Source: a virus. Taken from it: a stretch of 12,940 nucleotides of DNA. Made by a program: the position numbers and the translations under genes. Each line of letters opens with the position of its first letter. Position 1 is the first letter of the stretch. Location: IMG/VR virus record IMGVR_UViG_3300045988_172454. One strand, written 5' to 3'. Of this stretch, positions 1 to 12,940 are shown piece after piece. The notes beneath the pieces are model-generated. The model ran no database searches. It had not been told where the DNA came from and saw only the letters and a program-made list of their open reading frames with translations.

Positions 1-120
1 AAATGCATAACCATAAATACATAAATACATAAATATGTATATACATAAATACATAAATACATAAATACATAAATACATAAATATGTATATACATAAATAC
101 ATAAATATGTATATAAATAT
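1..120. repeat. Left inverted terminal repeat. A 12-bp unique terminus, AAATGCATAACC, is followed by a tandem array of an 8-bp unit (ATAAATAC) and a 16-bp unit (ATAAATATGTATATAC, containing the 14-bp palindrome TATGTATATACATA)
   Basis: Positions 1-30 are the exact reverse complement of 12911-12940. Beyond that the two ends carry similar 8-bp and 16-bp unit arrays with different unit order and number. The genome begins with AAA, as expected for protein-primed sliding-back initiation. Confidence 0.8.
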
Positions 121-145: not shown

Positions 146-174
146 TTGACATTATATTATATATATGTTAATAT
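146..174 (+). promoter_or_regulatory. Sigma-A-type promoter for the late/structural operon: -35 TTGACA (146-151), 17-bp spacer, extended -10 TGtTAATAT (166-174)
   Basis: The -35 hexamer is an exact consensus match. The 17-nt spacer and the TGn-extended -10 lie 18 nt upstream of the first ATG, which has the RBS GAGGTGA at 181-187. Confidence 0.6.
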
Positions 175-191
175 ATACGTGAGGTGATATT

Positions 192-434
192 ATGAAGAAC
201 ATTAACAACACAATTGATAATATACTGATTGCACTTGGTGCAACTTGGAGTTTAGCTAATATTCAAACACTACTTGGCATTATAGTGTTAGTTTTCCAAA
301 TTGTATGGCTTACATTTAAACTAATTGTCAAAATCATAAATAAGATTAAAACAAAGGGTAATTTAGATGAGTTAGACAAAGAAGTTGATAAAATAACTGA
401 TAAGATTAATTCAATAGGTGATGAAGATGAGTAA
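192..434 (+). CDS. Small membrane protein, holin-like (80 aa). It has two predicted hydrophobic helices followed by a Lys-rich and then acidic coiled-coil tail
   Basis: The ORF has a strong RBS (GAGGTGA). The hydrophobic segments ILIALGATWSLANI and LLGIIVLVFQIVWLTFKLIV are followed by KIINKIKTKGN and a C-terminus ending ...DEDE. This topology and size match class II holins, but no lysin partner is evident. Confidence 0.45.
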   Translation: MKNINNTIDNILIALGATWSLANIQTLLGIIVLVFQIVWLTFKLIVKIINKIKTKGNLDELDKEVDKITDKINSIGDEDE

Positions 435-1428
435 CACAATAAATAACCGCAAGGAATGGATTTTAGCAAGTTGTAAAAACGTACTTCAAGATAAAGATTA
501 TTTAATTAAACATATGATACTTCATATGCTTAACAAAACAACAAAAATGTTTAAATATACAGGTTTACCTGACACAATCAATGTAAAAGATTTAGAAACT
601 CAGTTACAAGTAAACGGTTTTGCTATTTGGAAAGAAGTTGAAGGAAAATTATACACATTTACTGGTGGATTAGGCGGTGAACCTAATGTATACTATCTAC
701 CAACTAAAGCTATAATATCAAATCCTGCTCTAAGATATACTGCTTCACTTGAGATAGATAAAGAATGTGTTGTTATGCTTAATGATTATTACTATGACGG
801 ATTAATGCCAATTAATAATAAATACGCTTCATTAATAACTGAAGGTGAATTATCGCTTAAATACGCTATGATAAATGCTAGAATTCCATCATTAGTACAA
901 GCTGATAATGATAATACCGCTGAGTCCGCTAAATCATTTTTTAATAAAATTGAGCGTGGTGAAGATTATGGTATTATTACTTCTAAAGAGTTTTTTGATG
1001 GTATAAAAACACACGATTTTCTAAAGATACAAAATATAAAAGATTTAATAGAAGTAGTACAATATTTAAAAGGTAGTTGGTACAATGAAATTGGTATACG
1101 TTCAACATTCAATATGAAGCGTGAAGCAATCAATAGTAGTGAAAGTTCATTAAATGATGATATATTAAGACCTTTTGTTGATGTTATGTTAGAATGTAGA
1201 AAAAATGCTTTAGAGAAGATTAATAAAATGTTTAATACAAATATAACAGTTGAACTTGATAGTGTATGGCTTTCAACACAAGTTGACGAAGATTTATCAC
1301 AAGATTTAAAAGTGGCTCAAGTAGAACAACTTGAGAAAACTAATGATAAAAAAGAAGAAAATAAAGGTGGTGAAGACAATGAAACTGTGGGAAACCCTGA
1401 CGGACGAAGAGAAAATACAACTGATTAA
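427..1428 (+). CDS. Head-tail connector / portal protein (phi29 gp10-like upper collar). The ORF track starts it at GTG 418; I prefer ATG 427 because of the upstream AGGTGA RBS
   Basis: The segment FKYTGLPDTINVKDLETQLQVNGFAIWKE...GGLGGEPNVY matches, from memory, phi29 gp10 [28 protein letters not shown]...GALSGQRDVY. The size of about 333 aa is also similar to gp10 (309 aa). Confidence 0.7.
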   Translation: MSNTINNRKEWILASCKNVLQDKDYLIKHMILHMLNKTTKMFKYTGLPDTINVKDLETQLQVNGFAIWKEVEGKLYTFTGGLGGEPNVYYLPTKAIISNPALRYTASLEIDKECVVMLNDYYYDGLMPINNKYASLITEGELSLKYAMINARIPSLVQADNDNTAESAKSFFNKIERGEDYGIITSKEFFDGIKTHDFLKIQNIKDLIEVVQYLKGSWYNEIGIRSTFNMKREAINSSESSLNDDILRPFVDVMLECRKNALEKINKMFNTNITVELDSVWLSTQVDEDLSQDLKVAQVEQLEKTNDKKEENKGGEDNETVGNPDGRRENTTD

Positions 1429-2215
1429 TCGTGAAATTGTTGGTATTTTTTCAACAATGATTTTATCAGGTGATGATTATTATTCACTTGCTAATGATTT
1501 ATGTTTAGGGTATTATATGGAGCGGAGCGGACAAAAAACTATATCAAAAACATATCAATTAATGTTAGATACTATTAAAGACAATAAAATTACTAATGAA
1601 ACCGCGGAAAGTTTATTAGGAAAATTAATACGTGGTAAGTATTCTTATAAATGGACTAAGATATACAATGCGTTAATGAATAACGATTATAAAGTATTGG
1701 ATGAATATGCTTCAACTACTATTACTAAAGGTAATAATGTTGATGAAACAAATTATGCTTCTCAAGTTGGAAAAACAGGAGCAAATAAAGATGAAACAAT
1801 TTATAATACTACTAATGAAGATGATGGAACATCAGGTAGTAGTGAAGTTACAACTCGTAATACTGAAAATAATAATGATGTATATGGGTTCAACAGTGTA
1901 TCACCTGTAGCAGCAAACACTAATAATGAAGTAATTACTGAAAAAGTAGAGGGTGAAGCCTCTAAAAATACAACACATAATACATCTACTAAAACAGGAA
2001 CTGACACTAAAAACTTCACTATTGATGAAAATCAATCTAAAACAGGAAAAGATACTATTAATAAAACTATAGATGAAAATGAAAATGTAAATGGACGTTA
2101 CAAAACAGGTGCTGAATTAATTAATAAAGAACTTGATATGCGTGAAAAACAAATACTTTTCAACATATTCTATAGAGATATTGATAGTGTTGTAACTTTA
2201 CAAATATATGAATAA
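1379..2215 (+). CDS. Structural protein, possibly a lower collar / tail tube protein (phi29 gp11-like by position and size). The 294-aa ORF-track version (1331) is an in-frame upstream extension lacking an RBS
   Basis: ATG 1379 is preceded by AGGTGG (1365-1370). The gene follows the portal gene as gp11 follows gp10 in phi29. The protein is 278 aa with a helical N-terminus, a Thr/Asn/Glu-rich low-complexity middle and a conserved-looking C-terminus. Confidence 0.4.
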   Translation: MKLWETLTDEEKIQLINREIVGIFSTMILSGDDYYSLANDLCLGYYMERSGQKTISKTYQLMLDTIKDNKITNETAESLLGKLIRGKYSYKWTKIYNALMNNDYKVLDEYASTTITKGNNVDETNYASQVGKTGANKDETIYNTTNEDDGTSGSSEVTTRNTENNNDVYGFNSVSPVAANTNNEVITEKVEGEASKNTTHNTSTKTGTDTKNFTIDENQSKTGKDTINKTIDENENVNGRYKTGAELINKELDMREKQILFNIFYRDIDSVVTLQIYE

Positions 2216-2230
2216 AGGAGTGATTAAAAA

Positions 2231-2509
2231 ATGCAAAAAGGCGGTTATCAAATAATCGATTTAGAAAATTGGAAGTTTACAACAACTAAAGGTGCTCCTG
2301 TTGCTAAAACACAAAAAGGAGTATATGCCCTTATAAAAGGGACTAGAAAAGTAATAATGTTAAGTGGAATTAATCTTGATGGAAAAGAGTTACACGACAT
2401 TTTCATTGAAGTAACACTAAACACTACTACTTATGAAGCAACAATTTATAGTAATTATAAATTAACAATTACTAATACAGACGTTGTTACAATTGAGGCT
2501 TTAAAATAG
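2231..2509 (+). CDS. Hypothetical small beta-rich protein (92 aa) immediately upstream of the capsid gene. It may be a capsid-associated or decoration protein. It does not look like a helical scaffolding protein
   Basis: The ORF has an AAAGGAG RBS and a Thr/Val/Ile-rich composition. It occupies the position of phi29 gene 7 but with a different character. Confidence 0.45.
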   Translation: MQKGGYQIIDLENWKFTTTKGAPVAKTQKGVYALIKGTRKVIMLSGINLDGKELHDIFIEVTLNTTTYEATIYSNYKLTITNTDVVTIEALK

Positions 2510-2525
2510 AAAGGAGATATAAAAT

Positions 2526-3692
2526 ATGAAAGTAGAACAAGCCTATGAATTTACAAATTATGCAACAAAAGAGGCTATTGGTGAAGTAGTAATTCTTAAA
2601 GAGGATTTATCAAACATAGTTGATGTTGGTGACGCTATTTTTAATGCTAATGCTTATGATAAATACGTTCACGCTTTAGTAAATAGAATTGGTAGAACTA
2701 TATTTGTAAATAGAGTATATCAAGGTAGTGCACCAAGTGTATTAATGGATGGTTGGGAATATGGTTCCGTTTTACAAAAAGTATCAGGTGCATTACCTGA
2801 AGCAAAAGTTAATGAAACGTGGGAATTACAAGACGGACAAAGTTATGACCCACATATCTTCCACGCTCCAAAAGGTATTGTTGTTAAGTTTTATAATGAC
2901 TATGTAACATTTGAAGTTGATATGTCATTTACTGAAGAACAATTAAAGCAAAGCTTTATCAATGCTAATGAGTTAAACGGATTTATAAGTATGCTTTATA
3001 CTCTTGTTGAAAACTCATTAACTGTTAAAATTGATGAATTAATACGTAGAACAATTAACAATATGATTGGTGAAACATTATATGATGATTATGCTTCAGG
3101 TACTGTATTTAATAATAAATCAGGAGCGAAAGCTATTAACTTATTATATTTATATAATCAAACAAAAGCTGAAGCTGACCAATTAACAGCTACAAATTGT
3201 ATCACAAATCCTGATTTTATTCGCTATGCGTCATACATTATCAAATTAACATTTGATAGACTACATACTATGTCAACAATATTTAATATAGGTAATCAAC
3301 CAAGATTTACACCTAAGGACTTATGCCATATTGTACTATTAACTGATTTTGCAAGTGGTGCGGATGTATTTTTACAAAGTGACACTTTCCATAATGAATT
3401 ATCAGCTTTACCAAAGAGTGAGATTGTTTCATATTGGCAAGGTAGTGGAACTGACTTTGGATTTAACAGTGTATCTAAGATAGATATTAAAACTGCTGAT
3501 GGAAATGACGTAGCAACAACGGGTATATTAGGAGTAATGTTTGATAGAAACGCATTAGGTGTATGTAACACACAAAGAAAAGTTACTTCACAATGGACTC
3601 CTAATGCTGAGTTCTTCACAAACTTTTATAAATACAAAGCAGGGTTCTTTAATGATTTAAATGAAAACTTTGTAGTGTTCTTTGTTGCATAA
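2526..3692 (+). CDS. Major capsid protein (phi29 gp8-like)
   Basis: It has the strong RBS AGGAGA with an 8-nt spacer. The segment DKYVHALVNRIGRTIFVNRV resembles phi29 gp8 NDFITSLVDRIGLVVIRQ (recalled from memory). At 388 aa it is the longest non-tail structural ORF and is followed by a hairpin plus T-run. Confidence 0.65.
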   Translation: MKVEQAYEFTNYATKEAIGEVVILKEDLSNIVDVGDAIFNANAYDKYVHALVNRIGRTIFVNRVYQGSAPSVLMDGWEYGSVLQKVSGALPEAKVNETWELQDGQSYDPHIFHAPKGIVVKFYNDYVTFEVDMSFTEEQLKQSFINANELNGFISMLYTLVENSLTVKIDELIRRTINNMIGETLYDDYASGTVFNNKSGAKAINLLYLYNQTKAEADQLTATNCITNPDFIRYASYIIKLTFDRLHTMSTIFNIGNQPRFTPKDLCHIVLLTDFASGADVFLQSDTFHNELSALPKSEIVSYWQGSGTDFGFNSVSKIDIKTADGNDVATTGILGVMFDRNALGVCNTQRKVTSQWTPNAEFFTNFYKYKAGFFNDLNENFVVFFVA

Positions 3693-3700
3693 TTAATTAA

Positions 3701-3748
3701 GTGATAGAAGTAAAGAGTATAAGATTTACTCTATACTCTATCACTTTT
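3701..3748 (+). terminator. Imperfect hairpin plus T-run downstream of the capsid gene, a candidate partial terminator or attenuator. Arms GTGATAG/CTATCAC and AGAGTA/TACTCT, then TTTT
   Basis: The outer 7-bp stem and inner 6-bp stem are followed by TTTTAATATT. It lies between the capsid stop (3692) and the next start (3772). Confidence 0.4.
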
Positions 3749-3771
3749 AATATTAGAAAGGATGTGAAAAA

Positions 3772-5556
3772 ATGGCAAAAGTATTAGATATACAAGAAAT
3801 AACATTACCATCAGCGTTAAATAGTACACAAACAAGTGGATATTATTACAATGGTTATTATTATATTAATACTTATAATAAGATATATAAATATGATTAT
3901 ATTAATAATGTTTTAACTATTTTATATAACAAATCAACTGAGAGTTATTATTGTTTAGGAATAAATGACAATATATATAGTTTTTATTATAATCAAACAG
4001 CAAGACAAGGTGATAATTATGTTTTTAACATTATTTTATATGTTTATAACATCACTAATAATACATATACTGAGCTAGGTAGTTCAAATTGTCCTTTTGT
4101 TGTTTATGGACACGAAATTGTATCTTTAGGTATCAATATGTTTTCATTTGATGGTAAAAAAATATATATATGTAATAGTATGTTTGAATATAAATCAACA
4201 TCAAATGGTTATACAAATTTTTATAGTAGATTAATTTATCATTGTTATAATATTGACACAAATAGTTTTACATATAATACTAAGGGTGGAACGGATAATG
4301 GATATATACCTTGTATAACACAACCTATTATATATAATAATAAATATTATTACAATATGACAAAATATAATGAAATACTAAATAATACATATAATATCTA
4401 TAGAAAAAATTTAGGATTCATAGATGTATTCATTGATAGTTGGGGTGATGAGTTCCTACAAATGAAAAACCTTTCCTCTTTAGATTATGATATAAGATAT
4501 AATGCCATTATGAAAAAAGAAGATGGTATTTATTATTTAATTGGTGGATATCTTAATGATAGTACAGTTAATAGAAAACTATATGAACTTAATTTAACTT
4601 CTCAAACTTTAACTGAGACAACATACGTATTACCTGAAGATTTTAGAGCTGTTAATGCGTGGTTTGTACAAGGTGAAAATGAAGGCTTTATATTTACTAA
4701 AACTAAAGCATATAAGTTTAGTTTTATTGAATATAATAATATTTATAACATTAGTAATAGTAAAGGTGATTTTATATATCAAACATTAACTGAACAATCA
4801 CCAATTAGTAAATTAAAGTTTACACAATCAGGTGATAATATTGGATATAATTTTACAACAATAACAGGTGATGTAACAGGAATATATACTCCACAAATAC
4901 CTAGTGGTTATAAATTAATAGGTTATTCACCTTCACCTAATTCAACAAAAGCAATAATACCTTTAGATACTGAAATTACCTATAATGTATTAGAAGATTT
5001 TACTTTCTATGAAGTGTATGGTAAATATCGTCCTATATATACTCCTTTTAGTATAAAACTTTATCAAAATAAAGCTGAAGCAAATAGAGTAGATAAAACA
5101 AATTATATCACTCTTGTTAAAGAGGTGTTAGGTGTTTTACGTGAGTCAACATCAATAATTGATTTTGCAGTTGTTCTAGAATTAGATACTTTCCCTAATT
5201 TTAACTATGTTTATATAGAAATATTTAATAGATATTACTTTGTAAGTGATATAGTATCCGTTAATAAAAATATATGGGAAGTGTCATTAAGTTGTGATGT
5301 ACTAATGAGTTATAAAGACGCTATTAATGCTTGTACCGGTTTTGTTGATAGAAACGAAAATACTTATAATTTATTAATAGTAGATGATAAATTACCTTTA
5401 AAACAAGGACAAACAATAACTACTGCTTTTGTGAATAATACATTATTTGATGATATTCAAGGAACATATGTTTTACAAGGATTACTTGTTACTCAAGGTG
5501 ATATTGTTACACCTCAAACACAAACAACTGAAACTACAACGAAGGAGGATAAATAA
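3772..5556 (+). CDS. Tail fibre / receptor-binding protein candidate (594 aa). The N-terminal half is extremely Tyr/Asn-rich with Kelch- or beta-propeller-like repeats
   Basis: Repeated Y/N/G motifs include GYYYNGYYYI, IYSFYYNQ, GKKIYICNS and EDGIYYLIGGYLND. Its size is comparable to the phi29 gp9 / appendage class. It is translationally coupled to the next gene by a TAATG overlap. Confidence 0.45.
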   Translation: MAKVLDIQEITLPSALNSTQTSGYYYNGYYYINTYNKIYKYDYINNVLTILYNKSTESYYCLGINDNIYSFYYNQTARQGDNYVFNIILYVYNITNNTYTELGSSNCPFVVYGHEIVSLGINMFSFDGKKIYICNSMFEYKSTSNGYTNFYSRLIYHCYNIDTNSFTYNTKGGTDNGYIPCITQPIIYNNKYYYNMTKYNEILNNTYNIYRKNLGFIDVFIDSWGDEFLQMKNLSSLDYDIRYNAIMKKEDGIYYLIGGYLNDSTVNRKLYELNLTSQTLTETTYVLPEDFRAVNAWFVQGENEGFIFTKTKAYKFSFIEYNNIYNISNSKGDFIYQTLTEQSPISKLKFTQSGDNIGYNFTTITGDVTGIYTPQIPSGYKLIGYSPSPNSTKAIIPLDTEITYNVLEDFTFYEVYGKYRPIYTPFSIKLYQNKAEANRVDKTNYITLVKEVLGVLRESTSIIDFAVVLELDTFPNFNYVYIEIFNRYYFVSDIVSVNKNIWEVSLSCDVLMSYKDAINACTGFVDRNENTYNLLIVDDKLPLKQGQTITTAFVNNTLFDDIQGTYVLQGLLVTQGDIVTPQTQTTETTTKEDK

Positions 5557-6710
5557 TGGCTACTGATAATAAATGGATTAGAGCACAAACTACAGGTTAC
5601 GATACCTCAATGAATGGTAAAGTAGTAATGACTCCAACACAGGTTAATACTTTGTGGAAATGGGTAATGAAAAGTCCTATATCTTCAGCTATATTTGGTG
5701 ATTATACAAAGTGGTGTAGTTCACTAATGTTTTTTCCATTTAATATATCACCTGATGTAACAGCAAATTATAAACTCTCAGTAATGGGTGTACAATCGGA
5801 TGAAATTACTTGTAAAGGATTAATTCCATCCAATGCAATATTTGGATACACTTTAGGTGAATACTTATATCCTTTACCTACTAAATATTTGGATTATGAA
5901 CCTTATACAAAACTTGAAGTGTATCTACCATTTTATGGACTAATTAATTTAAAAATTAGTGATGTTGCCGGTAAATACATTCAATTTAGATTGTTTGTTG
6001 ATTTTAATAGTGGAGTAGCACAATATGTAGTGGGAGTAAATGAAGTAAGTGTATCAAGTCCTAATGCTCCATATTGGATTAATACTGATGATACTAATAC
6101 TAGAATAATTGGTACTTATGTTTTTAATTTAGGATATAACATTCCGATAACTTCAACAGGAATGGCTGAAACAATACGTAATATTTCACTTGCTGTAATA
6201 AAAGGAACAGGTAATATTGCAAGTAGCTATATTGTAGATAAACTAACACCTAATACTACTACAAGTGCAAGTACTACCACTTTTACAAGAAGAAATCCAA
6301 AAACCGGTAGACAAGTGACTATGGGTACTAAACAAGAAGTTGAAACACGTGAAAGATATGATTATGGCACTAACCAAAGAGTAGGTACAGCATTTAATAC
6401 CGCAACAAGTGTATTAGAGGGTTTAAGTTTATCACCTGTTGTTGATAAAGCTAATAATAATATTATCAACAGTTCAACGTGTATGTCCGTTGTCATTATT
6501 AAAAAACAAGTAGTACCAACTATTGATATTACTAGTAGCGAGTATCGCAAACTTTATGGATTACCTTTAGGTGAGTTTAAATTGCTTTCTACAATCACTG
6601 GATACACTGAAATATCTTCAATACATTTAGAAGGTGAAGGATTTAATGAGGCTACTCATAAAGAACTAGCAATGATTAGTGAATTACTTAATGGGGGTAT
6701 TATTTTATAA
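5556..6710 (+). CDS. Putative tail protein (384 aa; tail knob or distal tail component)
   Basis: It has the RBS AAGGAGGA with a 6-nt spacer. It sits between the fibre-like gene and the packaging ATPase with start/stop overlaps on both sides. It is beta-rich and no catalytic motif is recognised. Confidence 0.35.
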   Translation: MATDNKWIRAQTTGYDTSMNGKVVMTPTQVNTLWKWVMKSPISSAIFGDYTKWCSSLMFFPFNISPDVTANYKLSVMGVQSDEITCKGLIPSNAIFGYTLGEYLYPLPTKYLDYEPYTKLEVYLPFYGLINLKISDVAGKYIQFRLFVDFNSGVAQYVVGVNEVSVSSPNAPYWINTDDTNTRIIGTYVFNLGYNIPITSTGMAETIRNISLAVIKGTGNIASSYIVDKLTPNTTTSASTTTFTRRNPKTGRQVTMGTKQEVETRERYDYGTNQRVGTAFNTATSVLEGLSLSPVVDKANNNIINSSTCMSVVIIKKQVVPTIDITSSEYRKLYGLPLGEFKLLSTITGYTEISSIHLEGEGFNEATHKELAMISELLNGGIIL

Positions 6711-7804
6711 TGAAAGAAAAATATTACACACTTAATAACATTCTTACTTATAATGCTGATTATAATATAATATATGGTGAAAGAAGTAATGGTAAAACAA
6801 CAGCAGTTTTGAGATACGCTTTAGAAGATTATATAAAAAGTAATTATATCAATCAACTTGCGATTGTTCGTAGATGGGAAGAAGATTTTAAAGGAAAAAA
6901 CGGAAGTCAAATGTTTGAAAGTATTGTTAATTTGGGATGGGTTGAAGAACTTACTAAAGGTAAATATAACGCTATCTATTACTATTCTCAAAGGTGGTAT
7001 CTAGCATTTTATAATGATGGTGAAAAAACTTTACAAGAAGAAAAACCTTTTGCCTTAGGTTTCTCAATTACTAGTGAAGAACATTATAAATCAACATCAT
7101 ATCCTAATATTAAGAATATATTATTTGATGAGTTTATCACAAGACAATATTATCTACCTGAAGAGTTCGTCAAGTTTCAAAATCTTTTATCAACTCTTAT
7201 TAGGTTAAAGAAAGATGTTAAAATATTTATGTGTGGTAATACGATAAATAAATACTGTCCATACTTTGCGGAAATGGGTTTATCAGGTGTTAAAAAACAA
7301 GTTAAAGGAACGATTGATTTATACACATATGGTGAAAGTACATTAAAAGTTGCTGTTGAATATAGTGACTTTCCATCTAAGAAAAAAGCAAGTAATAAAT
7401 ACTTTGCTTTCAATAATCCTAAATTACAAATGATAACTCACGGTGGATGGGAAATTGATATTTACCCTCACTTACCGCATAAATACCTTCCAAAAGATAT
7501 ATTATATCAATTCTTTATTCTTTTTGATAATGAAAAATTACACGGTAATATAATAAGTGTAGATGATACAATTTTTCTATATATTCATAGGAAAACAACA
7601 CCTATTAAAGAGAATAGTGAATACCTTATCTATCAACAACAACCTGATTACAGGCGAAATTATAGAACCAATATTTTAAAACCTTATAGTAAAGTTGATA
7701 AATATATCACAAATCTAATAGTTAATAAAAAAATCTTTTATCAAGATAATGAAGTTGGTGAGATTATGAATAACTATTTGAAATGGTGTATTTCAGGTAA
7801 ATAA
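6710..7804 (+). CDS. DNA packaging (encapsidation) ATPase, phi29 gp16-like
   Basis: Walker A GERSNGKT corresponds to phi29 GARGIGKS. Walker B ILFDEF corresponds to phi29 IVFDEF. Its 364 aa compare with about 332 for gp16, and it is the last gene of the + unit as in phi29. Confidence 0.85.
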   Translation: MKEKYYTLNNILTYNADYNIIYGERSNGKTTAVLRYALEDYIKSNYINQLAIVRRWEEDFKGKNGSQMFESIVNLGWVEELTKGKYNAIYYYSQRWYLAFYNDGEKTLQEEKPFALGFSITSEEHYKSTSYPNIKNILFDEFITRQYYLPEEFVKFQNLLSTLIRLKKDVKIFMCGNTINKYCPYFAEMGLSGVKKQVKGTIDLYTYGESTLKVAVEYSDFPSKKKASNKYFAFNNPKLQMITHGGWEIDIYPHLPHKYLPKDILYQFFILFDNEKLHGNIISVDDTIFLYIHRKTTPIKENSEYLIYQQQPDYRRNYRTNILKPYSKVDKYITNLIVNKKIFYQDNEVGEIMNNYLKWCISGK

Positions 7805-7830
7805 AAAAGATAGTAGAAATACTATCTTTT
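7805..7830. terminator. Bidirectional intrinsic terminator between the convergent ATPase and polymerase genes: AAAAGATAGTA-GAAA-TACTATCTTTT
   Basis: A perfect 9-11 bp stem (7805-7815 pairs with 7820-7830) carries a GAAA tetraloop. A T-run follows on the + strand (TTTTATTTAT) and a U-run on the - strand (complement of AAAAAA 7803-7808). It overlaps the last codons of the polymerase gene. Confidence 0.7.
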
Positions 7831-9957
7831 ATTTATATAACTTGATTTAACACCCATAATAAGTTTTATAAACTCATTATCTAATCCTAAAACATATCCG
7901 GTAGGCTCCATATGTACTCCTGATAACTCAAGATACTTTCCTTTGTTGCCAAGATAATCTATTACTTCACCTTGCATTTCATCATCAATATATGTATGGC
8001 AAAGTTTACCGCTACCTTGTTTTTTCACACCATTATCATTATAAACAGGTGGAAACTCTAATTCATTTTCAAATGCTTTAAATATCTTATCATTAGTTTT
8101 AAATCTACTTCTAAGATAATTAGCACCATTACTTTTAGCAACTCCTGCTATAGTGATATTAATTTCACCGTTTTTTTCAATCATATACCTCTTAGCTCCT
8201 AAAGTTTTAAATCTATCATACATACCTTCATAGTCCCATACTCCTAAAGGCTTTTCAATTCCTTTGATAGTCTTTGGTGAGGCTTTTTTAACATCTATGT
8301 TATAATGTGATAAACATTTATGTATCTTTTCAGTAATACGATTATTATATTTTTCAATGTAATCTTTATGTTTATCAATGTTTAAAACCTTGATACTATC
8401 AGTATCGCTGTATATGTAATCATTTTTAAACTCTAATATACCGGTAAATAAATTACGTCTAGCGTATGCTGTTATCCATACTCCCCAAGGATAATAAAGA
8501 AATCTAGAAAAACTATCATTATATTTTTTTAAATAATCTTCAATTTGATAATTTTCTAATTTTTCTTCATACCATTCATCTTGTAGGGACAAATATTCAT
8601 TAATATCTCTACAGGGGTCGGTTACACACATACCATAGCAAGAATTAATCATACCTTTAGAAACTTGATATTCAGCCTCTTTTCCTTCAACATTCTTTAA
8701 TGTTGTTTTGTCAAAATATAATTTAAGTATCATTTCAATAAAACTTTTAGGTAAATACCCTTTGTAGAATTTTTTAAAATGACTAATCTTCATAGAGTCC
8801 CAAGTATACATTTGTGATACTATAAAGAAATCTTGTTCCGTAAAACTTATTTTTAACAAACTAGCTTCTACAACTCTACCATTATTTAATATATAGTGTT
8901 CTATTTTACTACATCTTGAAAATGATATATAATTTTCAAACTCGCTTGTTGCCCGGATATTTTCAAACTCAATATCAAACATACAACAATAAGTTTTTAA
9001 TAAAGTGATGAACTGTTTGCCACTTTCAATCTTAACAGGTATTGGTTTACTCATCGGAAACTTTTCACTAAGCATTACTGCTGGATACGAAGATGAAAAA
9101 TCGAAACTATGTACCTTTTCAACAACTTTTCCAACATAATTGACATTAGCGTGTGTAAATCCACCTGTATATGTTCTTTTAAGTTGTTTATAGTCATCAA
9201 TATCAATTTTTAATAATCTCATTAAGTGGCTATATTCATATCGTTCTTCACCTTTTAAACACACTGTTCTACAAGCATTACGGACATATCCTGTTTTAGT
9301 TAGGGGTAATCTAGTAATATCACCTAATCTTTCTATCTCTTCTTGAATAAATGCCATTACTACTAATCCATCATTCAGGATATACCCCCATTCAGTATCC
9401 GTAAGAGGTGTTTGTGAATGTCTAATTAGTTCATAATCTAAGTCTCCAACTTTTTTATTTACTTTATATTTAGTAAGGTTTTCACCTAATTTTTCTAGTG
9501 AATACCCCGAAAGTAAATAAGAACAGCGAAACTCTATACCTATTTCAGCTAGTGCATAAAGAGGTTTCCTTGTATCAGTTGCAAAAACTTTGCACCAATC
9601 AAACATTTTTCTAAACCATTGGAACTCATACGCTAAATTATGCACATAAATTATCATCTTATTAATTATAGATAATTCGTAATATTCACATACTCTTTGT
9701 AGAACTTTGAACCATTCATCCCACGTTCTACCTCGTATGCATTTTCCGTTTATTCCAAAAACCCAAGCATACATAGTACATTGTTTTTGGTTTTCTTCAT
9801 TATAAAAGGAACTAGCTTCAATATCAAATACTGAAGCTACATTCAATACATTACAATTTCTTGTTACTATCCAATCAAAAGGCTCTAATAGTTCTTCAAT
9901 ACTATTAAAGAAGTTTTTTGAGTTCATCGGTGAGTAAAATTGAAAGTTCGTCTTCAT
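7822..9957 (-). CDS. Protein-primed family-B DNA polymerase (phi29 gp2-like, 711 aa). I start it at ATG 9957 (RBS AAGGTGA) rather than the GTG at 9966
   Basis: Exonuclease motifs are Exo I FDIEAS, Exo II YVHNLAYEF and Exo III YILNDG. The YxGG motif is YTGGF, motif A is DFSSSYP, motif B is KGMINSCYG and motif C is YSDTDSI. A KxY motif is present as KRY. Confidence 0.9.
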   Translation of the reverse strand: MKTNFQFYSPMNSKNFFNSIEELLEPFDWIVTRNCNVLNVASVFDIEASSFYNEENQKQCTMYAWVFGINGKCIRGRTWDEWFKVLQRVCEYYELSIINKMIIYVHNLAYEFQWFRKMFDWCKVFATDTRKPLYALAEIGIEFRCSYLLSGYSLEKLGENLTKYKVNKKVGDLDYELIRHSQTPLTDTEWGYILNDGLVVMAFIQEEIERLGDITRLPLTKTGYVRNACRTVCLKGEERYEYSHLMRLLKIDIDDYKQLKRTYTGGFTHANVNYVGKVVEKVHSFDFSSSYPAVMLSEKFPMSKPIPVKIESGKQFITLLKTYCCMFDIEFENIRATSEFENYISFSRCSKIEHYILNNGRVVEASLLKISFTEQDFFIVSQMYTWDSMKISHFKKFYKGYLPKSFIEMILKLYFDKTTLKNVEGKEAEYQVSKGMINSCYGMCVTDPCRDINEYLSLQDEWYEEKLENYQIEDYLKKYNDSFSRFLYYPWGVWITAYARRNLFTGILEFKNDYIYSDTDSIKVLNIDKHKDYIEKYNNRITEKIHKCLSHYNIDVKKASPKTIKGIEKPLGVWDYEGMYDRFKTLGAKRYMIEKNGEINITIAGVAKSNGANYLRSRFKTNDKIFKAFENELEFPPVYNDNGVKKQGSGKLCHTYIDDEMQGEVIDYLGNKGKYLELSGVHMEPTGYVLGLDNEFIKLIMGVKSSYINKR

Positions 9958-10456
9958 CGTCTTCACCTTCCAATGCTTCTAAAGTATCATCATACGCATT
10001 AATAATATCTTCAATAATTGCTTCTTCAGTTTTTCCTTGATACATCATATCAAGTATAGTTCCCCATACTTCATATTTATATTTCTCAAAAGTACCTGAT
10101 GTTATCTCATACTGTTTACCATATATTTCCCAAAACTTTTTTTTCGCTTCAGGCGATAATGTTTTCAAGTTATTTTTTATAGGTTCTAATTTTCTTTGTA
10201 CCTCTTTAGCGCCTCTAACAGTACTTGATTTTAATTTTTCTATGTATGATAAATCTCTATAAAGATTTTCTAACTCTTTTCTAGAAAGTTCACTCAGTCT
10301 TTTAGGAATATTTAAACTTCTATATTTTTCTACTGCATATTGAGGTGTTGTTTCTTTATCATATTTCTCAATACGCTCAATTCGTCTTGATACATTTTTA
10401 ATAAGACGCCTAGTCTTTTTTCTAAGCGTCTTATCGTCTCTAGCAAAACTATTCAT
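9905..10456 (-). CDS. Terminal protein candidate (183 aa), immediately upstream of the polymerase and overlapping it by 53 nt
   Basis: Its position is that of phi29 gene 3, next to the polymerase gene. The N-terminus is strongly basic (KTLRKKTRRLIKNVSRRIERIEK). The C-terminal tail is acidic (EALEGEDDEDELS) and could mimic DNA in the polymerase template channel. No alignment could be run. Confidence 0.5.
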   Translation of the reverse strand: MNSFARDDKTLRKKTRRLIKNVSRRIERIEKYDKETTPQYAVEKYRSLNIPKRLSELSRKELENLYRDLSYIEKLKSSTVRGAKEVQRKLEPIKNNLKTLSPEAKKKFWEIYGKQYEITSGTFEKYKYEVWGTILDMMYQGKTEEAIIEDIINAYDDTLEALEGEDDEDELSILLTDELKKLL

Positions 10457-10465
10457 ATTTTACCT

Positions 10466-10846
10466 CTAAAATGGTAAATCTTTTTCATTAAATATGTTTT
10501 CTTTATCATCACCAAATACTGACTCAAGTTTTGCTTCTCTAATTTGTTTCAATTCTTCTTCAGTATATTTAGAAAGTTCAACAACTTTATTAATCCAAAT
10601 TGTAGGATTACCTTGCTTTTTCACACCATTTTTATCAGTGTAGAAATTTCCTTTTTCAATAGATACGTCATCAATATTAATTGTCATATGATACATACCT
10701 TTTTCTTTAGGTGTAGTTAAACATTCTCTAGTAAACTTCACTTTAAACCATTTAGTTTTCACTAGTGTAGTAAAAGCTACAAATGCTTTTCCATCGTTCA
10801 TTTTAATTTCCTTTGCATAAATTGTTAATTTTTGTGTTTTTTCCAT
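10466..10846 (-). CDS. Hypothetical early protein (126 aa), possibly an ssDNA-binding protein
   Basis: It has the RBS AAGGAG. It is Lys-rich and beta-rich (KWFKVKFTRE, TIWINKVVEL) with an acidic C-terminus. Its position upstream of the terminal-protein and polymerase genes matches that of SSB or DBP genes in phi29-like early operons. The assignment is weak. Confidence 0.3.
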   Translation of the reverse strand: MEKTQKLTIYAKEIKMNDGKAFVAFTTLVKTKWFKVKFTRECLTTPKEKGMYHMTINIDDVSIEKGNFYTDKNGVKKQGNPTIWINKVVELSKYTEEELKQIREAKLESVFGDDKENIFNEKDLPF

Positions 10847-10915: not shown

Positions 10916-11122
10916 TTAATAACGTCCACGATTTTCACAAATCTCAATCACTGCTTTAATAAACTCAAGCTCAGCTTCATAAAGCTCTAAATCCTTTTCT
11001 TGAATGCTTGATAAAATATCATAGATTTTAACATCTTTCAGCTGATTAATTTTCTCATAGAGTTCTATTCTATGTTTTTCTAAGAAGTTCTTTAATGTCG
11101 GCTTTCCGTCTTTATATGCCAT
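10916..11122 (-). CDS. Hypothetical early protein (68 aa, helical with a coiled-coil-like character)
   Basis: It has the RBS GGAGGTGA and its start overlaps the upstream stop (TAATG at 11120-11124). Confidence 0.45.
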   Translation of the reverse strand: MAYKDGKPTLKNFLEKHRIELYEKINQLKDVKIYDILSSIQEKDLELYEAELEFIKAVIEICENRGRY

Positions 11123-11346
11123 TATATCACCTCCTTCCTCGTTAAGAATATACCATTAGGTTTAAAGATATATATTATATCTTCTTCTTTAATGCTTTCA
11201 AATGATTTAATATTATTAGGGTCAAGGTCAATCAATATTACTCTATCACCTACTTTTAAATATGACTTTCCATCTTTAGTTCTAAATGTCATACCTGATT
11301 TTATAGCTTTTTTATCTTTAATAATTTCATATCTTGTATCTTCCAT
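11122..11346 (-). CDS. Hypothetical early protein (74 aa), possibly an AbrB/MazE-like DNA-binding regulator
   Basis: It has the RBS AAGGAG with a 6-nt spacer. The segment KSYLKVGDRVILIDLD resembles the swapped-hairpin pattern of AbrB/MazE (a weak call). It is the first gene downstream of the 360-bp regulatory region. Confidence 0.4.
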   Translation of the reverse strand: MEDTRYEIIKDKKAIKSGMTFRTKDGKSYLKVGDRVILIDLDPNNIKSFESIKEEDIIYIFKPNGIFLTRKEVI

Positions 11347-11492
11347 ATATACTCCTTATAATTTAATTTAATTCGGATTTTTATTTTAGGGTCTCACTTT
11401 TTTCAAAGTTTTCAACCAATTTCTTAATATTTTTATTCTAAAACTTTTTCAATTTTCTCAAACACGAAACTTTTTTGAAAAGTTTTTGTAGG

Positions 11493-11535
11493 GCTGAAGA
11501 GGGTTTTGGTGAGGGTCGATTTTTTTGCCCTTCAG
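11493..11535 (-). ncRNA. Candidate structured RNA element (GC-rich stem-loop) in an otherwise AT-rich intergenic region. The strand assignment is tentative
   Basis: The window GGGCTGAAGAGGG...GCCCTTCAGG is about 48% GC against a genome average of about 27%. The stem is 8 bp on the minus-strand RNA, because the G.U wobble there is an A-C mismatch on the plus-strand RNA, and the loop is a 25-nt A-rich sequence. It is followed on the minus strand by an AU hairpin (11467-11485). Confidence 0.3.
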
Positions 11536-11606
11536 GTTTTGGCTTGAATATTTGAACATATGAACACTTCATCATATGAACATATTTTCATATGTCTTTT
11601 CTTTGG

Positions 11607-11672
11607 TTTATTTATGTATTTACATATTTGTGTATATACATATTTATGTATTTATATAAATACATATTTATG
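11607..11672. repeat. Internal partial copy of the terminal-repeat units (8-bp and 16-bp units in right-end orientation, plus one inverted unit that creates the 16-bp palindrome GTATTTATATAAATAC)
   Basis: The sequence GTATTTAC.. GTATATACATATTTAT GTATTTAT ATAAATAC matches the right-end ITR units GTATTTAT and GTATATACATATTTAT. Confidence 0.7.
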
Positions 11673-11705
11673 ATGTCCCTTTCTTATTTCCTTAAGTTTT
11701 AGAAA

Positions 11706-11966
11706 TTAAGCGATTCTCTCAACTTGCTTTTGAGAGAAGAAGAATGCTTTTGATTTGAAGAATGAGCCATCGTTCACTTCTTCAGAATCTACTTCAGTTT
11801 TAACTTTTGTTTTCTTTGGAAACCAAATCATACACGCCATTACTGATTTCTCGCCCTTCTTGACTTGATAGCCAAGACGCTTCCAGTCTTTATAAGTTTT
11901 AAGTATTAAATCCTCATCTAGTCCTAATTCTTTTTTTGCTGTTTCGATAATTTGATAATTAGTCAT
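11706..11966 (-). CDS. Hypothetical early protein (86 aa). The ORF-track 99-aa version is an upstream extension
   Basis: The RBS AAGGAGGA lies 8 nt upstream of ATG 11966. The start overlaps the upstream stop (ATGA at 11963-11966), suggesting translational coupling. The protein is basic, Lys-rich and acidic at its C-terminus, so it is a candidate small DNA-binding protein. Confidence 0.5.
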   Translation of the reverse strand: MTNYQIIETAKKELGLDEDLILKTYKDWKRLGYQVKKGEKSVMACMIWFPKKTKVKTEVDSEEVNDGSFFKSKAFFFSQKQVERIA

Positions 11967-12160
11967 TTTTTTTGTCCTCCTTTTAAATAATAATTTTTGA
12001 CACATAATAATTCCATCACGTCAGCATTTTCATTATTTTTTATAAATTCATCATATGTAATAGTTTTAACCGCATTAATGAGTATTAAGTTACCATCCAA
12101 CCCCTCAACGTAGTAATTACCATAGTCATCAGTATAGATTTTTATTGTGCTTTTTTTCAT
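11963..12160 (-). CDS. Hypothetical early protein (65 aa), small and acidic
   Basis: It has the RBS AGGAGTGA with a 7-nt spacer and is coupled to the downstream gene. Confidence 0.5.
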   Translation of the reverse strand: MKKSTIKIYTDDYGNYYVEGLDGNLILINAVKTITYDEFIKNNENADVMELLCVKNYYLKGGQKK

Positions 12161-12177
12161 ATTGTATCACTCCTTTT

Positions 12178-12549
12178 TTAATAATAATAATAATCAACAT
12201 CTACTACGTCATCATAATCAAAATTATTACATTGAATTAAATCTTCATTTACATTATATAGTTCTATTGATAAAGTTGTAACAATATACCCGCCATAAGA
12301 TTTATTAAACTCTTTTGCATTACTCTTTACTACTTCTAAACATTCAAATAAATAATTTGTTGCGGTCAAATGTGTAATATATGGTAAATCATTAATATTA
12401 TTATTATTAATTTTTTCTCTAAAAATAACCCATTCATCACCACATCCGCTATTTGTAAAACTTCCTTGCTTACATACTATATTAACGTATCCTCCTTTCT
12501 TGATTGTTTCTCCAATTACTTTTTGTTGTCTGTCATTAAAATACATCAT
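12178..12549 (-). CDS. Hypothetical early protein (123 aa, Cys-containing), the first gene of the right-end early unit. The 137-aa ORF-track version reads through ITR-type repeats and is an artefactual extension
   Basis: The RBS AAGGAGGA (complement of 12558-12563) lies 8 nt upstream of the ATGATG at 12549. The protein contains CKQGSFTNSGCGDEW. Confidence 0.5.
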   Translation of the reverse strand: MMYFNDRQQKVIGETIKKGGYVNIVCKQGSFTNSGCGDEWVIFREKINNNNINDLPYITHLTATNYLFECLEVVKSNAKEFNKSYGGYIVTTLSIELYNVNEDLIQCNNFDYDDVVDVDYYYY

Positions 12550-12567: not shown

Positions 12568-12604
12568 GTTTATGTATTTATGTATATACATATTTATTTA
12601 TATG
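12568..12604. repeat. Second internal partial copy of the terminal-repeat units (GTATTTAT followed by GTATATACATATTTAT), in the 5' leader of the first early gene
   Basis: Positions 12574-12597 match the right-terminal units exactly. Confidence 0.7.
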
Positions 12605-12605
12605 T

Positions 12606-12629
12606 GTATCTGAAATCTCTATCAGATAC
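12606..12629. promoter_or_regulatory. Perfect 8-bp inverted repeat GTATCTGA-N8-TCAGATAC at the predicted start of the early transcript. It is a candidate operator or 5'-leader hairpin
   Basis: The inverted repeat is seen directly in the sequence. It lies immediately downstream of the candidate -10 (12636-12641, minus strand). Confidence 0.4.
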
Positions 12630-12635
12630 GCTAAT

Positions 12636-12665
12636 ATTATAAACCTTAACATATTTTGAAATCAA
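12636..12665 (-). promoter_or_regulatory. Candidate right-end early promoter on the minus strand: -35 TTGATT, 18-nt spacer, -10 TATAAT
   Basis: The -35 is the complement of AATCAA at 12660-12665 and the -10 is the complement of ATTATA at 12636-12641. The orientation and position are right for driving the leftward early unit. Confidence 0.35.
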
Positions 12666-12828
12666 GAAAAATCGTAATGAAAACGGTTTCAGTCTTTATT
12701 TTGAGTTGTAATCGATTTTTATTTTTTACCTTTATAGTTTTATAGGGTATATATGAAAATTGATTATAACGCAAAATAGACGTCAAAAATCACATTTGTA
12801 TTTTTGGTTGTCTTTGTATGTTATCGTG

Positions 12829-12940
12829 TTTTATGTATATGTATATATGTATTTATGTATTTATGTATATACATATTTATGTATTTATGTATTTATGTAT
12901 ATATTTAATTATGTATTTATGTATTTATGGTTATGCATTT
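12829..12940. repeat. Right inverted terminal repeat (tandem 8-bp and 16-bp units plus the 12-bp unique terminus GGTTATGCATTT)
   Basis: Its reverse complement, AAATGCATAACC ATAAATAC ATAAATAC ATAATTAAATATATAC ATAAATAC ATAAATAC ATAAATATGTATATAC ATAAATAC ATAAATAC.., matches the left end. Confidence 0.8.

Follow-up and report, generated by a model that had tools for sequence, protein, structure and literature searches.

At both ends of the virus record IMGVR_UViG_3300045988_172454 from IMG/VR (hereafter the window, meaning the whole stretch of 12,940 bp that was analysed), a short terminal core is followed by a tandem array of 8-bp units, and the same units recur at two internal sites in the early region. 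The window is a complete-looking linear genome of 27-28% GC belonging to a small phi29-like podophage, and it is best explained as a complete linear genome with protein-primed replication from both ends. We propose, at a probability of roughly 45%, that the array assists origin opening and early regulation as an accessory module to which a predicted lineage-specific protein binds. This proposal builds on the anatomy of the arrays, on length variation that is quantised in steps of 8 bp, on the conservation of a 16-bp element termed V, on low duplex stability, and on the restriction of the arrays to one lineage.

Structure of the genome ends

Both ends finish on the same 12-mer, AAATGCATAACC, which is found at these two places only: at 1-12 on the plus strand and at 12929-12940 on the minus strand, the right copy being identical also in the independent assembly L051. 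This core begins with AAA, so that the template reads 3'-TTT, and contains the palindrome ATGCAT. Inward of the core lie the arrays, for which we use the unit names U (ATAAATAC), U' (ATAAATAT), P (GTATATAC) and P' (GTATATAA), with V (16 bp) standing for U' plus P. The left array (13-116, plus strand, 11.5% GC) is made of 13 8-bp units in the order U U U' P U U U U U' P U U' P', which can be abbreviated to U2 V U4 V U V'. The right array (12835-12928, minus strand) is made of 11 8-bp units at 12841-12928 and a partial ATATAC, the units reading, inward, U U ATAATTAA ATATATAC U U U' P U U ATATATAC. Measured from their respective ends, the two arrays occupy nt 13-116 and 13-106, and the consensus of the 8-bp unit is RTAWATAY.

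Tandem Repeats Finder reported a basic period of 8 at both ends (12-107, 12.0 copies, 86% matches; 12830-12929, 12.8 copies), together with a period of 24 on the left (17-119, 4.3 copies, 91% matches); the best superperiod was 24 on the left versus 32 on the right. The original prediction, made from the letters of the window, that tandem arrays stand at both ends and differ there in order and number is thus borne out, with 13 versus 11 units and period 8 at either end. Its left layout holds as it was given, and its right layout, U2 V* U2 V U2, is correct except that two degenerate inner units were left out. The 16-bp V unit that it described is present in the sequence and is better regarded as two variant 8-mers within a single 8-bp-periodic array. 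Similarly, the 14-bp palindrome TATGTATATACATA is real, but it does not lie within V as had been stated, being composed of the last 11 nt of V and the first 3 nt of the next unit, and it is not perfect in every V unit, since the copy at V' carries one mismatch. The feature had been placed at 1-120, a span that contains the left array and not the right one.

The repeats are far more frequent than chance would yield. U occurs 23 times where 2.67 copies are expected and no more than 8 were seen in any of 200 shuffles; the 14-bp palindrome has four perfect and three one-mismatch copies against 0.02 expected; and P has five copies in the genome, all of them within arrays, against 0.57 expected. Taken as an inverted repeat, the arms 1-108 and 12833-12940 are 89% complementary, the first 32 nt being identical. 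The two terminal regions also rank first and second among distinct 100-bp segments for low predicted duplex stability, two internal segments being almost as low, and the density of TA steps in the arrays is 0.27-0.28 versus 0.128 genome-wide (2.2-fold). A hairpin or cruciform was considered as well and set aside: the left 130 nt, folded as single-stranded DNA, were not significantly stable (z=-1.8).

Unit gain and loss in close relatives

Independent assemblies that are 90-99.98% identical to the window were available as L013/L049 (ENA ERZ780043), L050 (Logan SRR26912480), L051 (ENA ERZ19693221) and L189 (ENA ERZ15609801), and also as L001, L190, L191, L192 and L193. The right array, of 11 units in the window, has 8 units in L049 (U U V U V U) and 10 in L189 (U U ATAATTAA U ATATATAC ATAAGTAT-P U ATATATAC U), and the left array, of 13 units in the window, has 6 in L189 (AAATGTATATAC U5 GTATATAA). 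All of the differences in array length are multiples of 8 bp, each array holding 6-13 units between flanks that are 90-97% identical; the unit-level expansion and contraction that had been predicted is therefore confirmed at both ends. Within this variation the unit itself is tightly constrained: the 48 terminal units are of just seven types, and T2, A3, T6 and A7 do not vary in any of them.

Two of the relatives deserve closer description. L051 (99.98% identical) agrees with the window base for base over the right array and terminus, and its left end is an assembly chimera to which the repeats gave rise, with 136 nt of unrelated DNA (L051 1-136) fused to the sequence at window position 96, within the left array. 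L189, the 90% identical relative, begins at its left end (1-12 of the reverse complement) with AAATGTATATAC, that is, AAAT followed by the dyad octamer GTATATAC, and ends on the right with AAATGCATAGCC, so that only about 5 nt are strictly common to its two ends. Exact-pattern scans returned, for the 16-mer GCATAACCATAAATAC in viral contigs, 26 unrelated matches and the known relative, and, for the 24-mer V+U in metagenomes, one relative and seven unrelated contigs with TA-rich low-complexity stretches.

Internal copies in the early region

The U and V units are also found at two internal sites of the early region, which the original prediction had overlooked, both on the minus strand and both in the orientation of the right terminal array. 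The first, int1 (11608-11671), contains eight units including one perfect V, and is situated upstream of the replication-gene block, in a non-coding gap of 360 nt that separates the ArdC-N-like gene from the gene for a protein of 74 amino acids (aa). The second, int2 (12568-12597), reads V U ATAAAC and is situated between a promoter-like site with a hairpin, on one side, and the ribosome-binding site of the first early gene, on the other. The promoter-like site upstream of int2 (TTGATT-18-TATAAT, 12636-12665, minus strand) is of a kind whose matches are as common in the genome as in shuffled sequence (106 versus 101.6). The hairpin (GTATCTGA..TCAGATAC, 12606-12629, minus strand) lies between this site and int2; substitutions in it in L189 and L193 retain pairing as G-U only, which hints at a 5' stem-loop at the RNA level.

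What is preserved at these sites is V. The number of units at int1 ranges from about 6 to 11 among relatives and the perfect V is always kept: all 8 relatives compared at int1 have it, as do all 5 compared at int2. Aligned across five genomes, V and the 7 nt after it at int2 give 23 invariant columns in a row, within a region in which 24% of the columns vary. V is thus conserved at both sites while the adjoining units, the hairpin and even the downstream genes change.

The change of genes concerns mainly the segment between the two sites (~11673-12543), with its three genes (122/137 aa, 65 aa and the ArdC-N-like 86/99 aa), which is replaced in L050 and L189; in both comparisons the alignment breaks exactly at 11672. 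In L013, positions 11727-11862 are unaligned; from 11863 to the right end, identity falls to 82% in L013 and 77% in L001, against ~95% for the rest of either genome. An anti-defence role is possible for this early cassette (11673-12543). Directly beside int1, at 11545-11594, stands a second family of repeats (TGTTCATATG, containing CATATG dyads), which L050, L189 and L190 have and which is deleted from L013 and L001.

Genome ends across the wider group

A search with the polymerase returned thousands of homologues on 12-14-kb contigs, and 112 near-full-length related genomes were used for a wider comparison. The AAATG(Y)A terminus is seen also in L189, L194 and L196, and relatives start with AAATG or AAAGG. 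The conserved element is the AAATG(Y)A core, and the arrays are a dispensable addition to it, specific to each lineage. In L194, L195 and L196, the closest outgroups, promoters are placed 60-70 nt from the ends; L194 has a non-coding leader of ~480 nt after its terminal early promoter.

Many of the 112 genomes have inverted terminal repeats (ITRs) of 80-420 bp. Many apparent ITR lengths in related contigs equal what we take to be common assembler k-mer sizes (55, 99, 119 and 141), and for this reason such contig ends are probably not true termini. Across the 112 genomes, a tandem array was found in 27% of terminal 350-nt segments versus 7.7% of internal ones, and tandem arrays made up 6.1% of the bases outside open reading frames (ORFs) near contig ends versus 1.8% internally, a 3.3-fold difference. 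The units vary by lineage, including GACACAATTTTT, TTTAACAC, AATTGTGTG and GGTAAAGT as well as units of 11, 19, 22 and 29 bp.

In at least two further lineages, a palindrome that is repeated in the ITR recurs once inside the genome, as a cluster search with 10-mers revealed for ATGTTTCACGTGGAACA and TCCAATCGATTGGA. The first belongs to a large clade of 37% GC whose ITRs seemingly reach the terminus (e.g., L058, L102 and L123); there a AAAGGTACAC.. core is accompanied by several units of the TTTAACAC type and three ATGTTTCACGTGGAACA palindromes, and one further ATGTTTCACGTGGAACA copy stands in the middle of a long hairpin that resembles a terminator and follows the packaging ATPase gene (L058 5009-5110, with equivalents in L059-L129). 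The second is L175, in which TCCAATCGATTGGA is likewise repeated in the ITR with one internal copy. For the distant relatives Astrid, Phanie, L008 and L011, a search for internal copies of the terminal 11-mers gave none beyond chance.

After the hairpin of the 37%-GC clade stands TAnnTTTG (TATCTTTG), which we take to be the Bacteroidota -7 promoter motif, and the motif suggests a Bacteroidota host for that clade. The relatives L130-L188 are binned in metagenome-assembled genomes of many unrelated taxa (among them Ruminococcus, Muribaculaceae, Methanobrevibacter and Gastranaerophilales), and these bins provide no host evidence.

Proposed role of the arrays and alternatives

From these patterns we infer protein binding, origin activation and transcriptional control, in the following scenario. 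Each end would be composed of a short origin core, AAATG(Y)A.., found clade-wide, and an 88-104-bp lineage-specific array of RTAWATAY units. The 3'-TTT template of the core would fit sliding-back of the phi29 type, and the easily melted, flexible array beside the core may help the complex of terminal protein and polymerase to open the end. The array would also offer reiterated sites, chiefly the dyad-symmetric V (with its palindrome TATGTATATACATA), to a lineage-specific phage protein, the best candidates for which are two orphan early proteins, of 74 and 68 aa, or else the putative terminal protein's N-terminus, which is basic. Such a binder is predicted to form a multimeric complex at both ends, as p6 does in phi29, and the same protein might act at int1, upstream of the replication operon, and at int2, in the leader of the first early operon, thereby timing early transcription. 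Function would need the presence of an array and not its exact layout, and for that reason the number and order of units would be free to drift fast, presumably because strands slip and mispair and the four arrays undergo unequal exchange with one another. That the units are protein-binding modules rather than a simple ITR, as the original prediction had it, is plausible in view of the conservation of V and of the palindromes in other lineages.

The two orphan proteins are encoded on the minus strand at 10916-11122 (68 aa) and 11122-11346 (74 aa). They were found only in genomes with ATAAATAC arrays, and it is this co-occurrence that makes them candidate array binders. A tblastn search with both gave no match in 106 other related genomes, and in a search of 5.8 billion proteins all matches to either were at least 82% identical except for one 68-aa match at 55%. 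The structural work on the pair relied on shallow alignments only: the AlphaFold model of the 74-aa protein reached a predicted local distance difference test score (pLDDT) of 58.7 and had no Foldseek match in the PDB at E<=0.001, and the 68-aa model is a helical hairpin with generic coiled-coil fold matches only.

Several observations weigh against this scenario. The small early proteins matched nothing in Pfam, PHROG or NCBIfam and showed no recognisable DNA-binding fold or similarity to p6; the p6-like protein envisaged in the original prediction was accordingly not recovered, no p6 homologue having been found and the fold searches with the 74-aa and 68-aa proteins being uninformative. The ends of the closest outgroups (L194, L195 and L196, whose family-B polymerases are 64-67% identical to that of the window) share about 7 nt (AAATGTA) and have no arrays, and because these nearest outgroups have none, arrays are not required for protein-primed replication in this group. 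The prediction had named simple, non-repetitive ends in related genomes, with the arrays arising from assembly, as what would speak against it; simple, array-free ends are indeed what the nearest outgroups have, but the arrays recur in independent assemblies and so are no artefact of assembly. The exact left layout was seen in the window assembly only, L051 being chimeric from position 96 outward. The 8-bp period does not consistently fit either the helical repeat or the 12/24-bp spacing of p6. The conservation of V could in part reflect recent common ancestry, the relatives being at least 90% identical, and int2, being part of a transcribed leader, could exert its effect as RNA.

The main rival, unlikely in our estimation, sees in the arrays passive AT-rich DNA, prone to slippage, that fills the space from the core to the first promoters and is at most an unwinding element, with no sequence-specific protein involved. 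The unit is indeed close to a (TA-N2)n simple sequence, and the unrelated TA-rich low-complexity contigs in which the 24-mer V+U also occurs have 42-50% GC. Filler of this kind could come and go between lineages, as the arrays do, being absent in the nearest outgroups, and would show the low duplex stability and high TA-step density that were measured; nor did family and fold searches identify a binding protein. It accounts less readily for the fact that V is perfect at two internal sites while flanking units, hairpin and genes change, young as the lineage is, for the four invariant positions in 48 units, for the confinement of all GTATATAC dyads to arrays, and for the other lineages in which terminal palindromes are matched by an internal copy.

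A quite improbable alternative is that the internal arrays are recombination linkers or relics, that is, former right termini or homology for cassette exchange, and that the terminal arrays were copied outward as DNA was added. Both internal arrays are oriented like the right terminal one, and the replacement of ~11673-12543 in L050 and L189 with breaks exactly at 11672, as well as the unaligned or diverged sequence of L013 (82%) and L001 (77%) against ~95% elsewhere, would be in keeping with exchange at this place. In addition, L190 stops about 10 nt short of the int1 position and L051 is chimeric within the left array, so that the arrays do serve as repeated homology. No remnant of the 12-nt core remains beside either internal array, however, and the window's 360-nt non-coding region after int1 showed no homology to the terminal leaders of the outgroups. 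Moreover, such an origin would explain where the internal copies are and not why arrays stand at both termini.

We consider it very unlikely that the arrays are upstream promoter elements, AT-rich UP-like or activator-binding DNA whose terminal position is incidental. A promoter-like site with TG (TTGACA-17-TAATAT, 146-174, plus strand), recognised by its match to the consensus only, is placed 29 bp past the left array and before the structural operon that starts at 192; another, AAGACA-16-TATGAT, is placed just downstream of the end of int1; and in L131 and L132 arrays of 11-bp A/T tracts stand directly upstream of the terminal promoter. The right array, on the other hand, is ~170 bp from the nearest good promoter-like site, int2 is downstream of its promoter, and a period of 8 bp does not keep to the helical phase, as classical curved upstream elements do; promoter-like matches, as given above, are about as frequent in shuffled sequence.

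Equally doubtful is the idea that the arrays constitute a telomere-like reserve of origin cores. Each U contains AAATAC, to be compared with AAATGC at the true end, and the terminal 12-mer resembles a truncated V, the left end of L189 being AAAT plus GTATATAC. After nucleolytic erosion, the terminal-protein/polymerase complex might start again from the following unit or jump back over a single 8-nt register, and the ends would be healed with the loss or gain of whole units; 8-bp-quantised length differences between ends and between isolates would follow therefrom.

Finally, a collapse or expansion of low-complexity reads during assembly is barely credible: L051 is chimeric at window position 96, several contigs end in or beside arrays and the left layout was seen once only, but the right array and terminus are identical in L051, the same unit vocabulary is present in at least four other independent assemblies (L049, L050, L189 and L193), an array of ~100 bp with unique flanks should, by our estimate, be spannable by single short reads, and both ends finish on the same 12-mer.

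Genome context

The window combines inverted ends and 5'-AAA reiteration with a family-B polymerase gene (PF03175) and a packaging gene (PF05894), as a protein-primed phi29-like genome does. On the plus strand, 192-7804 encodes the connector, the major capsid protein and the gp16-type packaging ATPase (PF05894); Phi29_MCP and Phage_connector were matched on the corresponding genes of near-identical contigs. The protein-primed family-B DNA polymerase is encoded on the minus strand at 7822-9957 (Pfam PF03175, E=1e-10; PHROG 1907, E=6e-67). Upstream of it follow, in order, genes for products of 183, 126, 68 and 74 aa, the 360-nt non-coding gap, and genes for the ArdC-N-like product of 86/99 aa and for products of 65 and 122/137 aa. 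The last of these is a 137-aa ORF by mechanical calling, which begins within int2; the gene call of a near-identical contig starts 15 codons later and gives 122 aa.

The 183-aa ORF (9905-10456, minus strand) had no family match in Pfam, PHROG or NCBIfam and is a putative terminal protein by position only, overlapping the start of the polymerase gene; its N-terminus is very basic. The 126-aa protein (10466-10846, minus strand) had no family match and no PDB sequence match; it ends in ..EKDLPF, which we take to resemble the acidic C-terminal tip of bacterial single-stranded DNA-binding proteins, and it is like these proteins by the DLPF tail only. The nearest named phages are those of the Astrithrvirus group, with a polymerase identity of ~45%, and megablast of the whole window against GenBank phages gave no match, none being close at the DNA level. 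The JGI polymerase variant P0121, when looked up, was not on record.

A packaging RNA is expected in a phi29-like phage. Rfam at E<=1 gave one chance snoRNA match only and no packaging RNA. Two non-coding stretches, 12654-12734 and 11347-11560 (minus strand), contain no ORF of at least 50 aa on the early (minus-strand) side, and the former is almost invariant across five relatives; tested for structured RNA, both fold no more stably than shuffles (z=+0.5 and -1.26, respectively).

Comparison with known systems

Protein-primed replication is understood mainly from phi29, PRD1 and adenovirus. The group to which the window belongs is a very large one of uncultured gut podophages of ~12-13 kb, with thousands of polymerase homologues, in which short repeats and dyads particular to each lineage often make up the sub-terminal DNA. 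Should dedicated origin or regulatory proteins bind these elements, the elements would correspond to the p6 system but with sequence specificity, and they would lend themselves to the construction of orthogonal protein-primed replicons. Even if they are nothing but slippage-prone filler, they have practical consequences: assemblies break at them, and database entries cannot be relied on for the ends of genomes of this type. Variable tandem repeats in the ITRs of other linear double-stranded DNA viruses, accessory origin elements in adenovirus and phi29, and the simple-repeat ITR of HCIV-1 are already known. In those passages of a recent review of 2,115 phi29-like genomes that a term search retrieved, terminal repeats are mentioned only for phi29 and KSY1 (PMC11476376).

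The nearest parallel is offered by the p6 regions of phi29. Protein p6 nucleates 46-125 bp from both ends (sites 46-68 and 62-125), with 24 bp per dimer, activates initiation and represses an early promoter (PMC10899789). Like these regions, the arrays belong to a protein-primed phage genome and are sub-terminal (50-125 bp) on both sides of it, and they share the proposed roles in end opening and early promoter control (PMC10899789); the left array of the window has a 24-bp superperiod. The terminal nucleotide reiteration that sliding-back requires (PMC5175343) is present as AAA. On the other hand, p6 reads a pattern of bendability whereas the arrays are periodic in sequence, phi29 has an ITR of only 6 bp, and in the window no p6 homologue was found, the period is 8 bp, and the right array is off the 24-bp register.

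The adenovirus ITR resembles the ends of the window in having a conserved terminal core followed by accessory elements inside the ITR that would stimulate protein-primed initiation. Terminal reiteration and jumping-back have been described (PMC5175343). The adenovirus auxiliary sites differ in being single and in serving the host factors NFI and Oct-1, whereas the window has tandem arrays.

Poxviruses and other large linear double-stranded DNA viruses carry tandem repeats inside their ITRs, the copy number of which varies by unequal exchange or slippage. The arrays of the window are similarly placed inside the ITR and differ in copy number between isolates (6-13 units in this lineage). Poxvirus-type ends, however, are closed by hairpins and have units of tens of bp, in contrast to the window, where gene content points to protein-primed ends, the units are of 8 bp, and copies stand in internal control regions.

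The iterons of plasmids and phages are likewise short direct repeats beside easily melted DNA, with extra copies used for regulation. They are typically of 17-22 bp and read by a helicase-recruiting Rep protein, whereas the units here are of 8 bp and replication starts at the DNA ends; a Rep-like protein was not found in any family search of the genome's proteins. The archaeal virus HCIV-1, lastly, also has a protein-primed linear genome that ends in a simple repeat, a 19-bp ITR of CATCTCTCTCTCTCTCTCT (PMC4958249). There, a dinucleotide repeat makes up the whole ITR, with no dyad units and no reported internal copies, whereas the window places dyad-bearing units behind a terminal core at both ends and again in two control regions of its early genes.

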